DNA from: a virus
Taxonomy: Duplodnaviria > Caudoviricetes
Reading direction: 5' to 3' (one strand)
Length of the DNA stretch: 29,583 nt
Virus record (IMG/VR): IMGVR_UViG_3300017716_002909
Coordinates: 1 to 29,583 of that record
Shown here: piece by piece, positions 3,081 to 29,583 of the stretch
Layout: every line of letters begins with the position of its first letter
Position numbering within the stretch: the stretch's first letter is position 1
The notes under the pieces: model-generated
The model's database searches: none
What the model was told of the DNA's origin: nothing
The model's input: the letters and a program-made list of their open reading frames with translations, nothing else
Made by a program: the position numbers and the translations under genes

Positions 3081-5315
3081 ATGGAAACAAGAGTTGACAC
3101 CGTAATCTTTGCGGTAAAAATTGATAATACAGAAGCAGTTAAGCAATCGGCAGACCTTGCGAAAGAAATTGACGAGCTTATAAGCAAACAGCAGGAAATG
3201 GTAGCGCAGGGTGAAAAGAATTCTGCACAGTTCGTTGAGAATGCTTCAGCACTTCGCATATTGAAGAAGGAACAAACTGACTTGAATAGAAGCATCGACA
3301 ACAGTGCTAAGTCATTTATGCAAGCTTCAGGTTCTATAAACCAAATGAGAGCAAACCTTTCCAATATGACACAAGCTTATAACAAGCTGTCGAAAGAGGA
3401 AAGGGAGAACGCTGCTGTTGGTGGAAAGCTTCAGGCTCAAATGAAATCATTAAGCGATGAATTAAAAAAGAACGAAGGTGCTGTTGGAGATAATAGAAGA
3501 AGCGTTGGTGATTATGAAGGTTCAATCAAAAGAGCAGCAGGTGAAATAAAATTGTTCGGGGTTGATATTGGCGCTATTGGAAACAAGTTCAAGACTGCAA
3601 AAGATGCGTTTGGTGAAGCAGGTGACGGAGTTAAAAAAATGGGTGCAGGAATGCAAGTTGTGGCAACAGGTGCAATGCTTGGGTTAAGTATTTTAATTGG
3701 TGGGATAATTGCATTGCTGACAAAGTTTGAGCCTGTGGTGGAGAAGATTGAGTTTGCGATGAAAGGGCTGGCAGCAGCAGCTGACGTGCTTGTTGGAACT
3801 TTCATTGACATCGGCAAAGCGATAGTGGCTATGGACTTTAAAAACATTAGGTTAGACTTAGGAGAAATGACAGCTGAAATGGCAGCAGCTGCAAAGGAAG
3901 GGTATGCAATTGCTAAAGCATTTGATGCTATTGATGAAGCAACGACTGACGGAATAATTACATCGGCACAATATGAGAAAGCAGTGGCAGGACTTAACGT
4001 GCAGCTTAAAGATAGGACAAGGTCAGACCAAGAACGGTTGGAGATAGCTGCTAAAATTTCCAAGCTAGAAGAAGCAGAAGTTGAGCGAAAGTTTCAAATT
4101 GCAGATGCAACAGTGAAGGCGATAGCAAGAGAAAACGTGGCAGCAATGAAGGCAGGAACTATCAATGAAGAAATGAGAAAAAAGTTCGCTGAAGCCTATG
4201 CTGCTCGAGATATTATTCAAGCAGAATTTGAAGCCAACAGCGAGCGCAGACAAAACAGGGTTAATATGATCGTGGAACAAGCAGCCGAGAAAGAAACTAA
4301 AGCAGCCGAGAAAAGAGTTAAGGCACTTGAAGAACTTGACAAAGCAGCTGCTAAACTTCAAACAACTTATGAGAAACTTTTAGATGAATTTGATAAGCAA
4401 GCTGACGAACAGACTAAAATTTATTTTGATGCTTTAAATAAGCGAAGGGAGAAGGCAAAAGAAGCTACAGATAATTTCTATGCTGCCGAACAAACAGCGC
4501 TTGTTAATTCCTATGCACAGAATTTAATAACAACGGAACAATACAATGCAGCGCTGGAACAGTTGGAGCTTGACAAGTTAGAAAAAGAAAGGGCTAACTT
4601 GATCACAAATTTTGAAGATACAACACAGATTGACTTAGCAATTGCACAGAAAAGACTTGAAATAAAAAAGGCGAACACTGATTCGATAGTTAACTTGGAT
4701 AAAGTTGAAAAGGAATCAAAGCAACAGCTAGTAAATACTGCAATGGGTTTAGTTAATGATTTAGCTTCAAGCCTGCAAGCAGGAAAGGAAGCACAGAAAG
4801 CAATCGCTTTGGCAAACGCTGGTATCAATTTAGGGACTGCAATTGGAAACTTAGTGGCTGCAACTTCAGCTCCAAGTGCCGACAATTTATTGACAGGCGG
4901 TTTAGCAGGTGCTGCAAAGTTTGGAGTGCTAGTTGCACAGGCAATTTCATCAGTTGGTTCAGCAGTTGCCACAATTAGCGCAGCAGCAGGCGGTGGCACT
5001 TTCTATACTTCAAAGCCGACTTTATTAATGGTTGGCGATAACCCTTCAGGAAGGGAAAGAGTAACTGTTGAACCTTTAGGCTCGAGAGGAACGACAGTCT
5101 TTAATAAGAACAGCGGACTTGTTAAAATGGCTGGTGGTGGCACTATGATTTCTGACGGTGGAGCAACATTCGATAAAGTTTCCAGCGCAGGCAATGCGAT
5201 GTTTGACATGCAGCAAATGATTAAGTCAATGCCTGCACCAATTGTCAAAGTTGTGGATATTAATAGAGTTGAAAGAAACAGAGCAAGAATTGTAAAAGTT
5301 TCAGAACTTAACTAA
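3081..5315 (+). CDS. Tail tape measure protein
   Basis: 744 aa, Ala/Lys/Glu-rich coiled coil, 'GSINQMRANLS...DNRRSVGDYE' motif, internal hydrophobic segments, C-terminal 'AGGG...LLMVGDNPSGRERV'. Confidence 0.85.
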   Translation: METRVDTVIFAVKIDNTEAVKQSADLAKEIDELISKQQEMVAQGEKNSAQFVENASALRILKKEQTDLNRSIDNSAKSFMQASGSINQMRANLSNMTQAYNKLSKEERENAAVGGKLQAQMKSLSDELKKNEGAVGDNRRSVGDYEGSIKRAAGEIKLFGVDIGAIGNKFKTAKDAFGEAGDGVKKMGAGMQVVATGAMLGLSILIGGIIALLTKFEPVVEKIEFAMKGLAAAADVLVGTFIDIGKAIVAMDFKNIRLDLGEMTAEMAAAAKEGYAIAKAFDAIDEATTDGIITSAQYEKAVAGLNVQLKDRTRSDQERLEIAAKISKLEEAEVERKFQIADATVKAIARENVAAMKAGTINEEMRKKFAEAYAARDIIQAEFEANSERRQNRVNMIVEQAAEKETKAAEKRVKALEELDKAAAKLQTTYEKLLDEFDKQADEQTKIYFDALNKRREKAKEATDNFYAAEQTALVNSYAQNLITTEQYNAALEQLELDKLEKERANLITNFEDTTQIDLAIAQKRLEIKKANTDSIVNLDKVEKESKQQLVNTAMGLVNDLASSLQAGKEAQKAIALANAGINLGTAIGNLVAATSAPSADNLLTGGLAGAAKFGVLVAQAISSVGSAVATISAAAGGGTFYTSKPTLLMVGDNPSGRERVTVEPLGSRGTTVFNKNSGLVKMAGGGTMISDGGATFDKVSSAGNAMFDMQQMIKSMPAPIVKVVDINRVERNRARIVKVSELN

Positions 5316-7401: not shown

Positions 7402-8574
7402 ATGAAAAAATCAATTTCCTCAATCCTTGTCACATTGCTAAGTGCGGTGATGCTTGGTAATTTGTTCGCTTCTTTCACAGGAGTTGACCCTAATGTTGCC
7501 ACAGGCTTTGCTTTTGCTGGCTCGGTAGTTTTATCGCTTGCCTTTCCTTTATTTGCAGGTGCAGCTTTTAACGTGGTTTATTCTCCTATTCTTTTCACAG
7601 GTGAATTCTATGAAGAAATCTTTAATGAGATTTTATTCATGAACAAAACAATTGAGAAGGGCTTAGTTCGAATCATTGACAACGTAAATACTCAAATGGT
7701 TTTAACTGAATCAAACATCAGCAGAAGCACACAAGCTTATAAGCCAAGCCCAGCGAGTGGCGATGCTTTAGGTCAATTAACTTTTGCAGATAAAATTTTA
7801 TTGCCTTATCAGTTTATGATTTATGATGAATTTACGCCTAACAGTGTTATTTATTCACGCATGGGTAAAAGCAGATCAGCTGATACTTTTTTTCCTAAAG
7901 TTACTGATGAATATCAAAAACAAATTTTAGCAAGATATGGAGCAGCTGAAGCGGAGTTAATGGAGAGTAGGTTTTGGAATGCAGCAACAGCAGCCACTAA
8001 AGTAACAGTTGCAGCTTTAACCGCTGGAACAGGACAGAACGCAGTTGGAGCAGCAGAGCAAACTTATGTTGCAGCAGCACCGACTGACTTTATTGATGGA
8101 ATTTTCACTAAGTTAATTTTATCTTATTCAGTAACTAAGCGTAGAATTAAAGTTGCAGGAACAGCGATTACCGCTTCCAATATTGCAACAGAATACGCTA
8201 AAGTTTACGCTGCTATTTTACCAAAATTATTGCAACCTAACTATGCTGCATCAGTTGGAATGTTTGTTCCACATTCGCACCTTCAGTTAATTAATACTTA
8301 TAACACTAACGCAACTTATAGGGATTTATTCCAAGTTTCAAACGGTGAATATTATTACAATAACGTGAAGATTAACTTTGTTCCTTTAGCTGAAAACTGC
8401 ATCATAGCAGGTAACGGAATGGATTTAGTTTGGGGATGCGATGTGACCACGCCTGATGCAATGGTTAAGATAGACTTCTTATCTGCCAACAGCGAAGATA
8501 TGTTTATCAAAGCGCCATATACTCAACAAGCTGCTTTTGTTCAGGCACAGCAATTTGTTGTTTATTGCGGTTAA
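7402..8574 (+). CDS. Major capsid protein with hydrophobic N-terminal leader
   Basis: 390 aa, follows the protease/scaffold gene and is followed by a strong hairpin; C-terminal beta pattern ('IIAG...LVWGCD...VKID...MFIKA...FVVY') as in Bacteroidota phage capsids. Confidence 0.75.
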   Translation: MKKSISSILVTLLSAVMLGNLFASFTGVDPNVATGFAFAGSVVLSLAFPLFAGAAFNVVYSPILFTGEFYEEIFNEILFMNKTIEKGLVRIIDNVNTQMVLTESNISRSTQAYKPSPASGDALGQLTFADKILLPYQFMIYDEFTPNSVIYSRMGKSRSADTFFPKVTDEYQKQILARYGAAEAELMESRFWNAATAATKVTVAALTAGTGQNAVGAAEQTYVAAAPTDFIDGIFTKLILSYSVTKRRIKVAGTAITASNIATEYAKVYAAILPKLLQPNYAASVGMFVPHSHLQLINTYNTNATYRDLFQVSNGEYYYNNVKINFVPLAENCIIAGNGMDLVWGCDVTTPDAMVKIDFLSANSEDMFIKAPYTQQAAFVQAQQFVVYCG

Positions 8575-22951: not shown

Positions 22952-23866
22952 ATGAGCAAAATTAAATTTAGAGAAATCAGGCTTTCCAAATCCAACAAAG
23001 AAAGACTTGAAACCATTAATGAGATTATTAATGAATATCAGGAAGACGGCTACAAATTAACTTTAAGGCAGCTGTATTATCAATTGGTTAGTAGGGATAT
23101 TATACCTAACAAGCTGGCTGAATATTCAAAGCTTTCAACTTTATTAAAAGAGGGCAGAATGGGTGGCATAGTTGATTGGGATGCAATTGAAGACAGGTTA
23201 AGAAAACCGAGCAAGCCTTCAAGTTGGGACAGCCCTTCAGATGCGATTGATTCATTGATAAGCCAATATAAGCTCCCGAGAATGAAAGGGCAGCACACTT
23301 ACATTGAAGTGTGGGTTGAAAAGGATGCTTTGTCAGGAGTTTTAAAAAGAGTGACAGAAAAGTTCCACATTCCAATTGTGGTGAATAGAGGCTACAGTTC
23401 TGCTTCAGCAATGTTTGAAGCTTATAATAGATTTAAATATGGCATCAGCGATATTTTAAAAGAAGAAGACCAAGACGGAGCAGCAGTTGTTATTTTTTAT
23501 TTAGGGGACTTCGACCCTTCAGGAATGGACATGATAAGGGACGTGAAGGATAGAATTTTGGAATTTGCGCAGAAAGATTACGACTTCTTTCCTTTGGAAG
23601 TTATACCAATTGCTTTGACTAAAGAACAAATTGAGCAATATAACCCACCACCCAATCCAGCAAAAACAACCGACCCAAGAGCGAAAGGCTTTATTGAAGA
23701 ACATGGCGCTACGAGTTGGGAAGTGGATGCACTTCCACCAAAGGTTCTTAACAATTTATTGGACAGGGCTATTATGCAATATATAGACTATAAAAAATAT
23801 TTTGAAATAGTGCAGCAGGAAATAAAAGACAAAGAAAAATTAACTCTTTTAAAACAGTCAATGTAA
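22952..23866 (+). CDS. Topo VI-A/JetD-like winged-helix plus TOPRIM protein
   Basis: 'LTLRQLYYQLV', 'EVWVEKDAL', 'NRGYSS', 'LGDFDPSG', 'WEVDAL'. Confidence 0.75.
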   Translation: MSKIKFREIRLSKSNKERLETINEIINEYQEDGYKLTLRQLYYQLVSRDIIPNKLAEYSKLSTLLKEGRMGGIVDWDAIEDRLRKPSKPSSWDSPSDAIDSLISQYKLPRMKGQHTYIEVWVEKDALSGVLKRVTEKFHIPIVVNRGYSSASAMFEAYNRFKYGISDILKEEDQDGAAVVIFYLGDFDPSGMDMIRDVKDRILEFAQKDYDFFPLEVIPIALTKEQIEQYNPPPNPAKTTDPRAKGFIEEHGATSWEVDALPPKVLNNLLDRAIMQYIDYKKYFEIVQQEIKDKEKLTLLKQSM

Positions 23867-25731: not shown

Positions 25732-26016
25732 ATGAATGAAATAAAGTTTGAGATTTTTAAAGCTTTCGCACTTAGGTTGTGGATGCTTTCAGGCAGAAGT
25801 TTTACTGCTGCTGCTTTCTTATTTGCCCACAGCCTTCACCCTCATTGGGTTTTTATTGTTTCCTTTTGTATAAGCTTTCCTTTAGTGCTAATCGCATTTT
25901 ATAGGCTTATCGAAACAGTGCGTTTGTATTTCAAAATACTTCCTGATATCGACAAGCTGAAGCAGGAAGAAGTGAAAGCTGAGAATAAAAAATACCTTAA
26001 AAAATTAACAAAATGA
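25732..26016 (+). CDS. Small membrane protein
   Basis: 94 aa, two hydrophobic segments. Confidence 0.6.
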   Translation: MNEIKFEIFKAFALRLWMLSGRSFTAAAFLFAHSLHPHWVFIVSFCISFPLVLIAFYRLIETVRLYFKILPDIDKLKQEEVKAENKKYLKKLTK

Positions 26017-26609
26017 TTGAGCAGGTAGCAATTAATTTGTTGAAGCTGAATGATAATAACCCACGCTTCATAAAGGACGAGAAGTTTCAAAAGCTTGTCA
26101 AGTCTATTAAAGAATTTCCAGCAATGCTTCAACTGCGACCAATTGTCGTGAATGAAGATATGGTTGTGCTTGGTGGCAACATGCGGTTAAGGGCATGCAA
26201 AGAAGCAGGTTTGAAAGAAGTGCCAATCATTAAAGCCAGCAACTTAACTGAAGCGCAGCAGAACGAGTTTATCATAAAAGACAACGTGGGCTTTGGAGAA
26301 TGGGCTTGGGATGAACTAGCGAATGGTTGGGACACAGAACTGCTAACAGTTTGGGGCTTGGATATAGTGGGCTTTGACGTGAATGCAGACAAGTTTGGAG
26401 AAGGCTTCAGTTTAGCAGACGGTCAGAAACCACCCTTTCAACAAATGACATTCACGCTTGCAGACGAGCAAGCCACAATAATTAAAAATGCAATGGAAGA
26501 CATCAAGCAGACTGACGAATATAAGTTTGGTGAATTCTTTGAAAACGAAAACAGCAACGGTAACGCACTTGCATTAATTGTGCAGCAATGGGCAGAGCTA
26601 AAGAAATAG
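26013..26609 (+). CDS. ParB/Srx-like domain protein
   Basis: 'NNPRFI...KLVKSIKEFP.ML.LRPIVV....VLGGNMRLRAC', 'FIIKDN..FGEW'. Confidence 0.85.
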   Translation: MIEQVAINLLKLNDNNPRFIKDEKFQKLVKSIKEFPAMLQLRPIVVNEDMVVLGGNMRLRACKEAGLKEVPIIKASNLTEAQQNEFIIKDNVGFGEWAWDELANGWDTELLTVWGLDIVGFDVNADKFGEGFSLADGQKPPFQQMTFTLADEQATIIKNAMEDIKQTDEYKFGEFFENENSNGNALALIVQQWAELKK

Positions 26610-27277
26610 TTGTCAAAGTAATTAACTCTAAGCTGGCAAATGATTTTGTCAGACAAAACCACTATTCAAAGAAGGTTGTTCCAAACTCAACGCTTCACTT
26701 TGGTTGCTTTTTAGACAACCGCCTTCATGGTGTTATGAGCTTTGGTTCTCCAATGATAAAAGAGAAAGCGCTTCCTTTAGTTGAAGGCACAGGCTGGAAC
26801 GAGATGTTAGAACTCAATCGCATGGCTTTTGATTCCTACCTGCCAAAGAACAGCGAATCAAGGTGTATATCAATTGCCTTCAGGCTAATAAAGAAAAACG
26901 CACCGCAGGTGAAGTGGGTGCTTTCTTATTCTGACGGCACTCAATCAGGGGACGGCACTATCTATAGAGCATCGGGCTTTTATTTGACAGCCATAAAGCA
27001 GAACAAAGGAATTATCATGTTGCCCAATGGTGAAATAAGAGCGCACATGACATTCACGAAGGGCAAAGCCATACTTTCAAACAACGGCAAGGCTTCGCAC
27101 CCTGAAGGCTCAAAGTATCTTGAAGGATTCCAGCTGAGATATATTTATTTAATTGATAAGTCTTGCAAGCTGACAGTTCCTGTTCTTTCCTTTGATGAAA
27201 TAGACAAAGCAGGTGCTGGAATGCTTAGAGGCAAACGACAAACTTTAGAAAGCAGAAAGGTCAAAAAAAATGAGTAG
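26588..27277 (+). CDS. mom: Mom-like (GNAT-fold) DNA adenine modification enzyme, copy 1
   Basis: 'NHYS', 'ELNRMAF', 'SESRCI', 'LSYSDGTQSGDGTIYRASGF' match the Mom-family pattern as I recall it. Confidence 0.75.
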   Translation: MGRAKEIVVKVINSKLANDFVRQNHYSKKVVPNSTLHFGCFLDNRLHGVMSFGSPMIKEKALPLVEGTGWNEMLELNRMAFDSYLPKNSESRCISIAFRLIKKNAPQVKWVLSYSDGTQSGDGTIYRASGFYLTAIKQNKGIIMLPNGEIRAHMTFTKGKAILSNNGKASHPEGSKYLEGFQLRYIYLIDKSCKLTVPVLSFDEIDKAGAGMLRGKRQTLESRKVKKNE

Positions 27278-27932
27278 AGTTAAGGAAATTATCGTTAAGG
27301 TCATTGATGCAAAGACTGCAAATGAATTTTGCAAGATATATCACTATTCAGGAAGCTTCGTGATGAATTCTGTTTTGCATTTTGGATGCTTCCTAGACGG
27401 TAAGCTGCATGGAATTTTACAATATGGCAACAGCATTGATAAAAGAAATTGCATCGTCTTTGTGGACACAGGCATGACTATCAATGAAGGTTGGAACAGC
27501 TTTTTAGAATTGAACAGAATGGCTTTTGATGACTATCTTCCTAAATATAGCGAGAGCCGTTGCATAGCAATTACTATCAAGCTTATCAGGAAACATGCAC
27601 CGCAAATAAAATGGATATTAAGCTATGCAGACGGAACGCAGTGCGGTGACGGAACAATTTACCGAGCTTCAGGCTTCCAGCTTTGTGGGATCAACAAAAA
27701 CTCAACTATCTACGAACTGCCAAATGGAAAGTCTAAAGCGAAGCATGGAACAAGCAAGGTGGACTTCACAGGAGCGAAGCGCAAAGAAGGAAACCAATTC
27801 AGGTATATTTATCTGGTTGACAAGGCTTGTAAAATAACTTTGGACATAATTCCCTTCAGCAAGATAGATGAGCTAAATGCAGGCATGTATAAAGGGCAAA
27901 GAATAAAAGTATCGGAAAGAAGCAAGCAGTGA
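27270..27932 (+). CDS. mom: Mom-like DNA adenine modification enzyme, copy 2
   Basis: Full-length paralogue of copy 1: 'YHYS', 'ELNRMAFDDYLPKYSESRCI', 'SYADGTQCGDGTIYRASGF'. Confidence 0.75.
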   Translation: MSRVKEIIVKVIDAKTANEFCKIYHYSGSFVMNSVLHFGCFLDGKLHGILQYGNSIDKRNCIVFVDTGMTINEGWNSFLELNRMAFDDYLPKYSESRCIAITIKLIRKHAPQIKWILSYADGTQCGDGTIYRASGFQLCGINKNSTIYELPNGKSKAKHGTSKVDFTGAKRKEGNQFRYIYLVDKACKITLDIIPFSKIDELNAGMYKGQRIKVSERSKQ

Positions 27933-27937
27933 AAAAA

Positions 27938-28011
27938 TGGAGCAGTGGGATAGTTTCGAACTTCGTCTCTTGGCTGGAATGCCAAGCGCTTTCAGGTTAA
28001 GCTACCACCGC
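27938..28011 (-). tRNA. Atypical tRNA-Gly-like RNA (UCC within an 8-nt anticodon loop), encoded CCA
   Basis: GCGGTGG TA GCTT AACCTGA AAGC G CTTGG CATTCCAG CCAAG AGAC GAAG TTCGAAA CTATC CCACTGC T CCA: cloverleaf with 7-bp acceptor stem, TTCGA loop and U73. Confidence 0.8.
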
Positions 28012-28066
28012 ATAAAAAAAAGAACTGCGCTTTTGTGTCAACAAAGCAACAATAAAAAAATGAACT

Positions 28067-28471
28067 ATGCAAGCCAAAAGTAAAAAAGCTATTCAACTGA
28101 CTGATAAAAAAGCTGTTAGCCCTGATAAGATTCAGACAAATACAGACATCAGAAAAGAACAAATGATTGCAGCATTGGAACAATCGCTTGGAATAGTAAC
28201 CACAGCTTGCAAAGCAGTTGGAGTGGCAAGGGCAACGCACTATGAATGGTTAGACAGCGACCCCGAATATAAAAAGCGAGCTGAAGCTTTGGGTGATATA
28301 GCGCTGGACTTTGCAGAGAGTAAGCTGTTGAGCCAAATAACAAAAGGGGACACGACAGCGATTATTTTCTACTTGAAAACCAAAGGAAAGAAGCGTGGCT
28401 ATATAGAAAGAAGCGACATCAATATTCAAATTGAGCAGCCAATATTTACAGGCATAGATTTGAAAGATTAA
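28067..28471 (+). CDS. terS: Terminase small subunit
   Basis: 'ALEQSLGIVTTACK.VGV.R.T.Y.W', 'LDFAESKL', 'AIIFYLKTKGKKRGY.E'. Confidence 0.8.
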   Translation: MQAKSKKAIQLTDKKAVSPDKIQTNTDIRKEQMIAALEQSLGIVTTACKAVGVARATHYEWLDSDPEYKKRAEALGDIALDFAESKLLSQITKGDTTAIIFYLKTKGKKRGYIERSDINIQIEQPIFTGIDLKD

Positions 28472-28966: not shown

Positions 28967-29583
28967 ATGCTTCAGAAGACCACAGCTCAAAAAAAGATAG
29001 CAGCGCTAAAGGGCAGGTATAGAATTGTGCAAGGTGGGACAAGTAGTTCCAAAACCTTTTCAATAATTCCTTTGCTTATCAACCATGCTATCCAGCATCC
29101 AATGACTGAAATCAGTGTTGTTGCTGAAAGCTTGCCACATTTAAAAAGGGGTGCAATGCGTGACTTTTTGAAAATAATGGAGTGGTGCGGAATATTCAAC
29201 GACAATAATTTCAACAGGTCAGGCTTAAAATATACTTTCAACAACGGTTCATTTATAGAATTCTTCTCAGCCGATGCTCCTGAAAAAATGAAGGGTGCAC
29301 GAAGGCATGTGCTGTTCGTTAATGAAGCCAATAATATCAAACATGAAACATTCATCCAGCTTGCTATTAGAACAAGCGATTTCATATTTGCTGACTATAA
29401 CCCTTCAGAAGATTTCTACTTAACGACTGAATATATTAACGACCCCGATGCAAGCCATGTGGTGCTTACTTATTTGGACAACGAAGCCCTTGACGAAAGC
29501 ATTGTAAAGGAATTAGAGAAGGCAAGGGATAAAGCAGCAACGTCAGAATATTGGGCAAATTGGTGGCGTGTTTATGGGCTTGG
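28967..29583 (+). CDS. terL: Terminase large subunit, PBSX-like (5' part; not in the ORF track)
   Basis: MLQKTTAQKKIAALKGRYRIVQGGTSSSKT (Walker A), 'KGARRHVLFVNEAN' (Walker B), 'DYNP', 'TYLDNEAL'; open to the window end. Confidence 0.92.
   Translation, partial: MLQKTTAQKKIAALKGRYRIVQGGTSSSKTFSIIPLLINHAIQHPMTEISVVAESLPHLKRGAMRDFLKIMEWCGIFNDNNFNRSGLKYTFNNGSFIEFFSADAPEKMKGARRHVLFVNEANNIKHETFIQLAIRTSDFIFADYNPSEDFYLTTEYINDPDASHVVLTYLDNEALDESIVKELEKARDKAATSEYWANWWRVYGL

Follow-up and report, generated by a model that had tools for sequence, protein, structure and literature searches.

What is the function of a tRNA-Gly-like RNA gene that follows a tandem pair of Mom genes in a phage, and that departs from canonical tRNA-Gly in its T-stem, its anticodon loop and its D-loop? 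The window analyzed here, the whole 29.6-kb virus record (29,583 nucleotides), contains this gene on the minus strand, lying 5 nt past the stop codon of the second Mom gene (Table 1). The two runs that matched the window best were freshwater metagenomes, and one of them may be where it comes from. The original prediction, made from the letters alone, described an 8-nt anticodon loop, a 4-bp bulged T-stem, a D-loop without GG, a G3-U70 pair and otherwise intact stems, and every one of these features was present. The strand was left unstated there, and while the description of the RNA held, the key context, the adjacent Mom genes that explain it, was not named.

Table 1. Coordinates of the RNA, its parts and its neighbors (positions in the window unless a locus is given).
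Feature	Coordinates	Strand	Evidence or remark
tRNA-Gly-like RNA gene, bulged-T-arm family, CCA encoded	27938..28011	-	RF00005; ARAGORN relaxed; family model R1
U70 (27944, wobble with G3 at 28009), G71, C72, discriminator U73 (27941)	27941..27944	-	
T-arm, 4-bp stem GAAG/CU(A)UC, bulged A at 27951	27949..27964	-	covariation; register test
Anticodon loop, 8 nt, CAUUCCAG; UCC at 27978-27976	27974..27981	-	C35 and C36 are GlyRS identity bases
D-loop AACCUGA, 7 nt, without GG	27992..27998	-	
Candidate Bacteroidota-type -7 boxes for the RNA	28042..28082	-	TAnnTTTG without mismatch at 28082-28075; two boxes with one mismatch closer to the RNA; weak in the window copy
ParB N-terminal domain protein, overlaps Mom no. 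1	26013..26609	+	PF02195
Mom-family GNAT no. 1, 229 aa	26588..27277	+	PF25680, E 1.7e-49
Mom-family GNAT no. 2, 220 aa	27270..27932	+	PF25680, E 1.4e-43; PDB 8BV8 (Mu Mom structure), E 5e-22
Terminase small subunit (context)	28067..28471	+	PHROGs matches
Terminase large subunit, truncated at contig end (context)	28967..29583	+	PF04466
D-armless copies in phage vB_PmaS_Y8A	L270:3162-3226 and 3234-3299 (record 7786-7850 and 7858-7923)		

The acceptor stem of the window RNA was found to have 7 bp, including G1-C72, C2-G71 and G3.U70, and the D- and anticodon stems had 4 and 5 bp, respectively. The RNA scored 37.1 bits against the Rfam tRNA model RF00005, above the gathering score of 29, and 73.5 bits against R1, a model of the family whose building set included the window RNA. 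ARAGORN, a check proposed in the original prediction, missed the RNA at default settings and found it with a relaxed threshold. Canonical elongator tRNA-Gly(UCC) has a regular 5-bp T-stem (7/5 branch), a 7-nt anticodon loop with U33 and a D-loop GG. The window RNA shares with it the cloverleaf, the glycine identity bases and an RF00005 score above gathering, but has an acceptor branch of 11 bp (7 + 4) with a bulge, an 8-nt anticodon loop, no D-loop GG, and G3.U70. From the bacterial glycine identity set of U73, G1-C72, C2-G71, G3-C70, C35 and C36 (PMC9976931, Table 1), only G3-C70 was absent. The bulged A of the T-stem lies two pairs from the acceptor junction, within the region of pairs 49-65, 50-64 and 51-63. 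Taken as a single sequence, the RNA had a borderline fold energy (z -1.92, with 9 of 200 shuffles folding equally well), and its minimum-energy fold does not show the bulged T-stem; the structure is settled because the family covaries.

Both window Mom proteins passed the PF25680 cut-off and retained equivalents of Mu Mom R111 and S124 in a motif check, and they are only 51% identical to each other. A single-sequence AlphaFold model of Mom no. 2 reached a pLDDT of 32.5, too low to use. A homologue of the ParB-domain protein was found in 61 of 66 representative loci, which makes it the usual neighbor of this Mom clade. Farther upstream, a 304-aa gene (22952-23866) matched a PHROG annotated as DNA topoisomerase (E 8e-88) and had no Pfam match. 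Mu Mom transfers glycine from Gly-tRNAGly to the N6 of DNA adenine, yielding the anti-restriction base 6-NcmdA, and it works with each of the three tRNA-Gly isoacceptors of E. coli (PMC13219725). The window enzymes thus belong to a family whose Mu member has a glycine tRNA as co-substrate. In contrast to the window, Mu uses host isoacceptors and the Mu flank fetched contained no such RNA, whereas the window Mom, 33% identical to that of Mu, is duplicated, is preceded by a ParB-like gene and is followed by its own tRNA-like gene.

The association was followed forward from Mom genes in 149 viral loci, 31 genome loci, one cultured phage locus and the window. Two loci were dropped before counting, one on the same contig as another (L089 and L040) and one with less than 150 nt downstream (L400), leaving 180 loci. 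A cloverleaf was found within -60 to +260 nt of the end of the Mom match in 138 of the 180 loci, compared to 2 of 170 upstream control windows. Among 96 distinct copies, 95 had a bulged A in the 3' strand of the T-stem two pairs from the acceptor junction, 71 of them with a 4-bp and 24 with a 5-bp T-stem; the remaining sequence was a spurious second parse in L142. The same bulge was found in none of 470 ordinary phage tRNAs (459 regular, 8 otherwise irregular and 3 unparsed), and of 131 ordinary phage tRNA-Gly, 130 had a regular T-arm. The window RNA belongs to this family by its bulged A in the 3' strand of the T-stem, its glycine identity bases and its adjacent Mom.

Across 45 representatives with the 4-bp T-stem, bases paired in 99.4% of 900 cells and none of 500 shuffles gave an equal covariation score, although the structure was drawn from the same sequences and relatedness inflates such scores. 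Two-sided changes occurred in 16 of the 20 pairs, among them each of the four pairs that the T-stem forms in the bulged register. All four stems covary. An alternative T-stem register without a bulge was rejected; it paired in only 60.9% of cells and left 51:63 unpaired in 45 of 45 representatives. Random decay among homologues, named in the original prediction as an outcome that would speak against it, was looked for and was absent, the bulge being near-invariant and covarying.

The bulged RNA is optional for Mom loci, as it was absent downstream in 42 of the 180. When the loci lacking it downstream were searched with model R1, variant copies were found in L087 and L136, and unbulged tRNA-Gly genes were found 2-3 kb upstream in five further loci; the model gave no convincing copy in the remaining ones. 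The L087 variant (1010-1080), with a bulged G and the loop UAUUCAU, lies approximately 2.2 kb upstream of the Mom end. Four Mom loci without the bulged RNA have a tRNA-Gly approximately 2 kb upstream of the Mom end, often with odd anticodon loops (L109:1201-1272, L121:106-177, L410:1195-1266 and L128:1195-1265). Three of these have a U51xC63 mismatch and one an A51-U63 pair, possibly a second route to weaker EF-Tu binding.

The association was also followed in reverse, from patterns of the RNA alone to Mom. Because the forward set was the source of these patterns, and some contigs occur more than once, the 4-bp reverse test lacks full independence; stricter counts were restricted to loci with at least 700 nt of flank on both sides. 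With the 4-bp pattern, 120 viral loci were taken from approximately 330 estimated stretches, and Mom was found in the fetched flank of 106 of them, and in 69 of the 71 well-flanked ones. The 5-bp pattern gave Mom at 101 of 120 loci (71 of 74 well-flanked), and the 4-bp pattern in metagenome contigs gave Mom at 101 of 119 loci (38 of 42 well-flanked). A canonical tRNA-Gly pattern gave Mom at 0 of 120 loci and 0 of 68 well-flanked loci. The well-flanked matches without Mom nearby were thus 2 of 71, 3 of 74 and 4 of 42, respectively. One clear orphan family member (L154:1202-1272) lies directly before a terminase gene with no Mom within 1.2 kb.

Among the first 80 loci of the 5-bp search, 44 neighbors scored below 100 bits against the clade profile and were approximately 22-40% identical to Mom no. 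2; 43 of the 44 passed the Pfam Mom cut-off, and the RNA lay just upstream or downstream of them. Since Moms beyond the forward set are also paired with the RNA, the RNA follows the enzyme family and not one gene neighborhood. A quick tree placed the forward-set carriers in one starred clade apart from Mu, with sense and antisense copies alternating among close Moms while the link to Mom persists; its label 'none' is wrong for three loci, as L089 duplicates L040, and L136 and L400 carry a copy. In 15 distant Mom loci of cultured phages, Mu included, no bulged RNA was found in the fetched flanks.

The bases read by GlyRS were found to be kept throughout the family. G1-C72 was present in 96, C2-G71 in 95, G3-C70 in 89, U73 in 94 and C35 together with C36 in 92 of the 96 copies. 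The features used in decoding varied freely. The anticodon loop had 7 nt in 55 of 96 copies and 8 nt in 37, and a 7-nt loop with U33 occurred in only 23. The 8-nt loops were CAUUCCAG (16 copies), CAAUCCAG (9), UAUUCCAA (6) and others, with no constant four-base anticodon. U was found at position 34 in 81 of 96 copies, and UCC was the commonest anticodon. D-loop GG was present in 50 of 96 copies compared to 129 of 131 ordinary phage tRNA-Gly, and the T-loop had UUC, as in the window copy, in 64 of 96 and UGC in 17. Twelve of 95 copies had UUC and D-loop GG as well as a 7-nt loop with U33, and in these only the bulge speaks against decoding. CCA was encoded in only 13 of 95 copies, the usual ending being C-A-A or C-U-A. 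That this ending is an altered 3' end was considered and rejected, since tRNA genes in Bacteroidota genome bins end alike. The comparison lends support to the earlier suggestion that the RNA is shaped to avoid EF-Tu and the ribosome, the bulge being near-invariant and covarying while U33, loop size, D-loop GG and UUC are free.

From these sequence comparisons we consider it probable (approximately 0.7) that the window RNA is a dedicated non-ribosomal glycine carrier for Mom and a member of a conserved phage family. This reading is based on the structure and its covariation, the kept GlyRS bases, the loss of features needed in decoding, and a link to Mom that was found in both directions. The RNA would be transcribed, from its own promoter for antisense copies and by read-through for many sense copies, and then processed like a tRNA. 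Host GlyRS would charge it with glycine, and the bulged T-stem is predicted to weaken EF-Tu binding and so to keep the RNA off the ribosome. Mom would then move the glycine from the RNA to an adenine in phage DNA, where a rearrangement would give 6-NcmdA, and this base would shield the phage DNA from restriction, a product role taken from Mu Mom. The benefit would be a supply of activated glycine left unsequestered by EF-Tu, as with the staphylococcal non-proteogenic tRNA-Gly. What we infer here is that the RNA is transcribed and processed, is charged, is bound weakly by EF-Tu and serves these Moms. The pairs 49-65, 50-64 and 51-63 set EF-Tu affinity (PMC11231383); the literature searched held no paper testing the EF-Tu effect of such a T-stem bulge. 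Against the glycine-carrier reading, the SelC* tRNA-Cys, with a T-stem bulge at a different site, is compatible with suppression (PMC5389517). Moreover, Mu does without such an RNA, the RNA persists in a sister strain that has lost both Moms at this locus, and in the window copy G3.U70 replaces a glycine identity pair.

We tentatively extend this reading to an idea that we hold with less confidence: many phage Moms could be two-part modules of an enzyme and its private RNA carrier, in which the bulged A would block EF-Tu and would also be read as a positive mark by Mom, or by Mom in complex with ParB. Such a module would have a natural aminoacyl carrier that is orthogonal to translation and can be reduced to D-armless forms. 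The bulged base may be such a mark because all of the 95 unbiased copies have A there, and mere disruption would not be that strict.

The RNA might instead work uncharged on the mom gene, as RNase P punctuation in sense copies or, in the remaining ones, as an antisense transcript. Of 46 sense representatives, 25 (L074, L397 and L398, for example) have the stop codon of Mom within the RNA or past it, so that excision of the RNA would yield a message without a stop codon, and antisense copies converge on mom, often with their own promoter box. The Bacteroidota -7 consensus is TAnnTTTG (PMC9723704). Of 20 antisense representatives, 11 had this motif no more than 30 nt upstream of the RNA, whereas five control windows gave 0-1 and 200 shuffles never exceeded 4; it was also present at 10 of 46 sense copies. 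In the window copy the exact box lies 63 nt upstream of the RNA, farther than the 4-12 nt of those 11 antisense representatives. A Bacteroidota host for the window phage is likely. A scan for sigma-70 promoters and terminators found nothing exceeding chance, and the contig from the RNA run X6 is no evidence of transcription, because contigs reveal neither strand nor ends nor level and the same contig is found in the DNA run X4. However, punctuation needs neither C35 and C36 nor the glycine acceptor set, all of which are kept, the copies lie upstream or downstream of Mom and on either strand, and the known co-substrate of Mom is exactly Gly-tRNAGly. An uncharged element is thus unlikely.

It is rather unlikely, too, that the RNA is an auxiliary phage tRNA-Gly that decodes GGA and that Mom uses like any other tRNA-Gly. 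The prevalence of UCC and of U34 agrees with such a role, as do the 12 copies that look competent for decoding except for the bulge, and some copies persist without Mom. On the other hand, a 7-nt loop with U33 is the exception in the family, D-armless members exist, ordinary phage tRNA-Gly had Mom nearby at 0 of 120 loci, and ordinary tRNAs do not carry the bulge (0 of 470).

G3.U70 was the basis for another proposal of the original prediction, an RNA that donates both alanine and glycine. AlaRS would also charge the G3.U70 RNA, and the adenines installed by the two Mom paralogues would derive from glycine and from alanine. G3.U70 alone can confer alanine acceptance on other tRNA bodies. Close relatives with differences at other positions share this pair without exception, and the low identity of the two Moms to each other would fit two substrates. 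U70 at 27944 was found without difference in contig pieces of X2, X4, X5 and X6, 4 nt from the contig end in X2; as several runs agree, G3.U70 is not an assembly error. It occurred in 1 of the 96 distinct copies of the forward set, the only set from which its frequency can be taken because the reverse patterns force C70, and it is consequently not a family trait. Two Moms needing two amino acids found no support, since six other two-Mom loci lack G3.U70 (G3-C70 in five and A3-U70 in one). The alanine set has G3.U70 as its main determinant together with G4-C69, A73 and G2-C71 (PMC9976931, Table 1); the window RNA has the first two but has U73 and C2-G71 in place of the others. In addition, Mu Mom used neither Ala- nor Gly-tRNAAla (PMC13219725). 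The dual donor is therefore a weak proposal and quite improbable. G3.U70 may be a lineage-specific change that weakens glycine charging of the window copy or allows some alanine charging. That the carrier of this lineage was re-tuned towards alanine, making a new DNA base, is very improbable.

A decaying family allele or an attachment-site remnant would account for a G3.U70 that departs from the pair kept in 89 of 96 copies, for a promoter box that is weak in the window copy, and for a sister strain that lost its Moms at the locus. In this strain (X4 DNA and X6), Mom no. 1 near 26801 is joined directly to 27935, so that 26802-27934, 1133 nt comprising most of Mom no. 1 and all of Mom no. 2, are missing at this locus. 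The RNA is retained, and the three changes in its anticodon stem, including one two-sided change and a wobble, preserve pairing; these changes may be older than the Mom deletion. Their preservation of pairing argues against decay, as do the 20 of 20 pairs of the family structure that the window copy forms, its encoded CCA and its two intact Moms. As for a remnant, Mom and terminase flank the RNA, and the cellular tRNA-Gly genes examined in the same genome bins are ordinary, which indicates that the window RNA is not a copy of a host gene. Decay or a remnant is very unlikely.

A decoy or nuclease-resistant spare directed against anticodon nucleases or tRNA-Gly-acetylating toxins, also raised in the original prediction, is still harder to sustain. 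The anticodon loops of the family are varied and odd, phage tRNAs that neutralize defense are known (PMC11464382), and TacT acetylates Gly-tRNAGly via U73 and G71 (PMC9976931). Nevertheless, a decoy leaves the near-exclusive link to Mom, across 22-80% identity, unexplained, and it does poorly as the main function; it could be a side benefit. The proposed GGAA quadruplet decoder or +1 frameshift promoter draws on the 8-nt loop of the window copy and 36 others, 37 of 96 in all, and can be dismissed as a conserved job, since 55 of 96 copies have 7-nt loops, the 8-nt loop sequences differ without a constant four-base anticodon, and the bulge lies within the EF-Tu contact region.

The closest parallel to a glycine carrier for Mom is found in S. 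aureus, where the tRNA-Gly NP1-NP3 are donors for FmhB, FemA and FemB; EF-Tu sequesters proteogenic Gly-tRNA, and FmhB prefers the non-proteogenic isoacceptors through features of the D- and T-arms (PMC7826273). In both cases glycine identity is kept, the D- and T-arms are altered and the partner is an aminoacyl transferase with the GNAT fold. Unlike NP1-NP3, the window RNA is phage-encoded and adjoins its enzyme gene, its proposed target is DNA adenine and not lipid II, and it has an invariant bulged A where the NP tRNAs have base substitutions; EF-Tu avoidance and enzyme preference are predicted for it. NP1-NP3 have UGC or UGU in place of the T-loop UUC, which the window copy retains, and they belong to a staphylococcal chromosomal lineage that serves Fem, whereas the window is a phage record with Mom as the neighbor. 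The NP lineage has been described as confined to staphylococci (PMC7826273). By analogy, the window RNA likely functions as the staphylococcal non-proteogenic tRNA-Gly do, yet stands outside that family.

Irregular tRNAs comprise allo-tRNAs, 8/4 tRNA-Sec and SelC* with bulge A51a, and some of them are charged but unused in translation (PMC5389517). These tRNAs of Mukai et al. include classes with a 4-bp T-stem and a bulged A. They have an 8- or 9-bp acceptor stem and a 12-bp branch, carry the bulge on the 5' strand at 51a, and are of the Ser, His, Cys or Sec type; in contrast, the window RNA has a 7-bp acceptor stem, outside the allo and 8/4 types, a bulge on the 3' strand, glycine identity and a Mom neighbor. 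The literature searched contained two Mom papers and no description of a Mom-linked phage tRNA. No such tRNA is mentioned in the sections and supplements examined of PMC13219725 or in the available text of the preprint 10.1101/2023.03.24.534169, and PMC7824862, in its available text, mentions Mom without such an RNA.

The 2026 paper on the mechanism of Mom (PMC13219725), in the parts available, leaves open what Mom recognizes in the tRNA and how it copes with drawing on translation; the family suggests as an answer that many phages bring their own glycine carrier. If this is true, the RNA would be the first phage-encoded tRNA dedicated to DNA chemistry, so far as the literature was searched, and the bulge would be a new structural way of removing a tRNA from translation. 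The 4-bp, 5-bp and D-armless variants offer ready material for mapping recognition by Mom and EF-Tu, and the RNA can serve as a marker for remote Mom genes.

A cultured carrier is available in the Psychrobacter phage vB_PmaS_Y8A, which has two tandem, unannotated D-armless copies with encoded CCA between Mom and the small terminase gene (Table 1); the available text of the paper on this phage reports no tRNA genes (PMC10434257). A second, distant Mom at the other end of its genome lacks the RNA. Unusual anticodon loops were found in gut-type genome-bin copies (L420:1725-1794, L409:3254-3324, L419:3253-3325 and L411:1369-1439), namely ACUUUGU, CACGCCUG, CAUGCCUG and AAACCU, respectively, with acceptor and bulged T-arm unchanged. 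A73 replaced U73 in L114:1771-1844 and L115:2829-2903, which belong to one long-branched Mom pair. As A73 is the archaeal and eukaryal glycine discriminator (PMC9976931), these two may be archaeal viruses whose RNA tracks the synthetase of the host.
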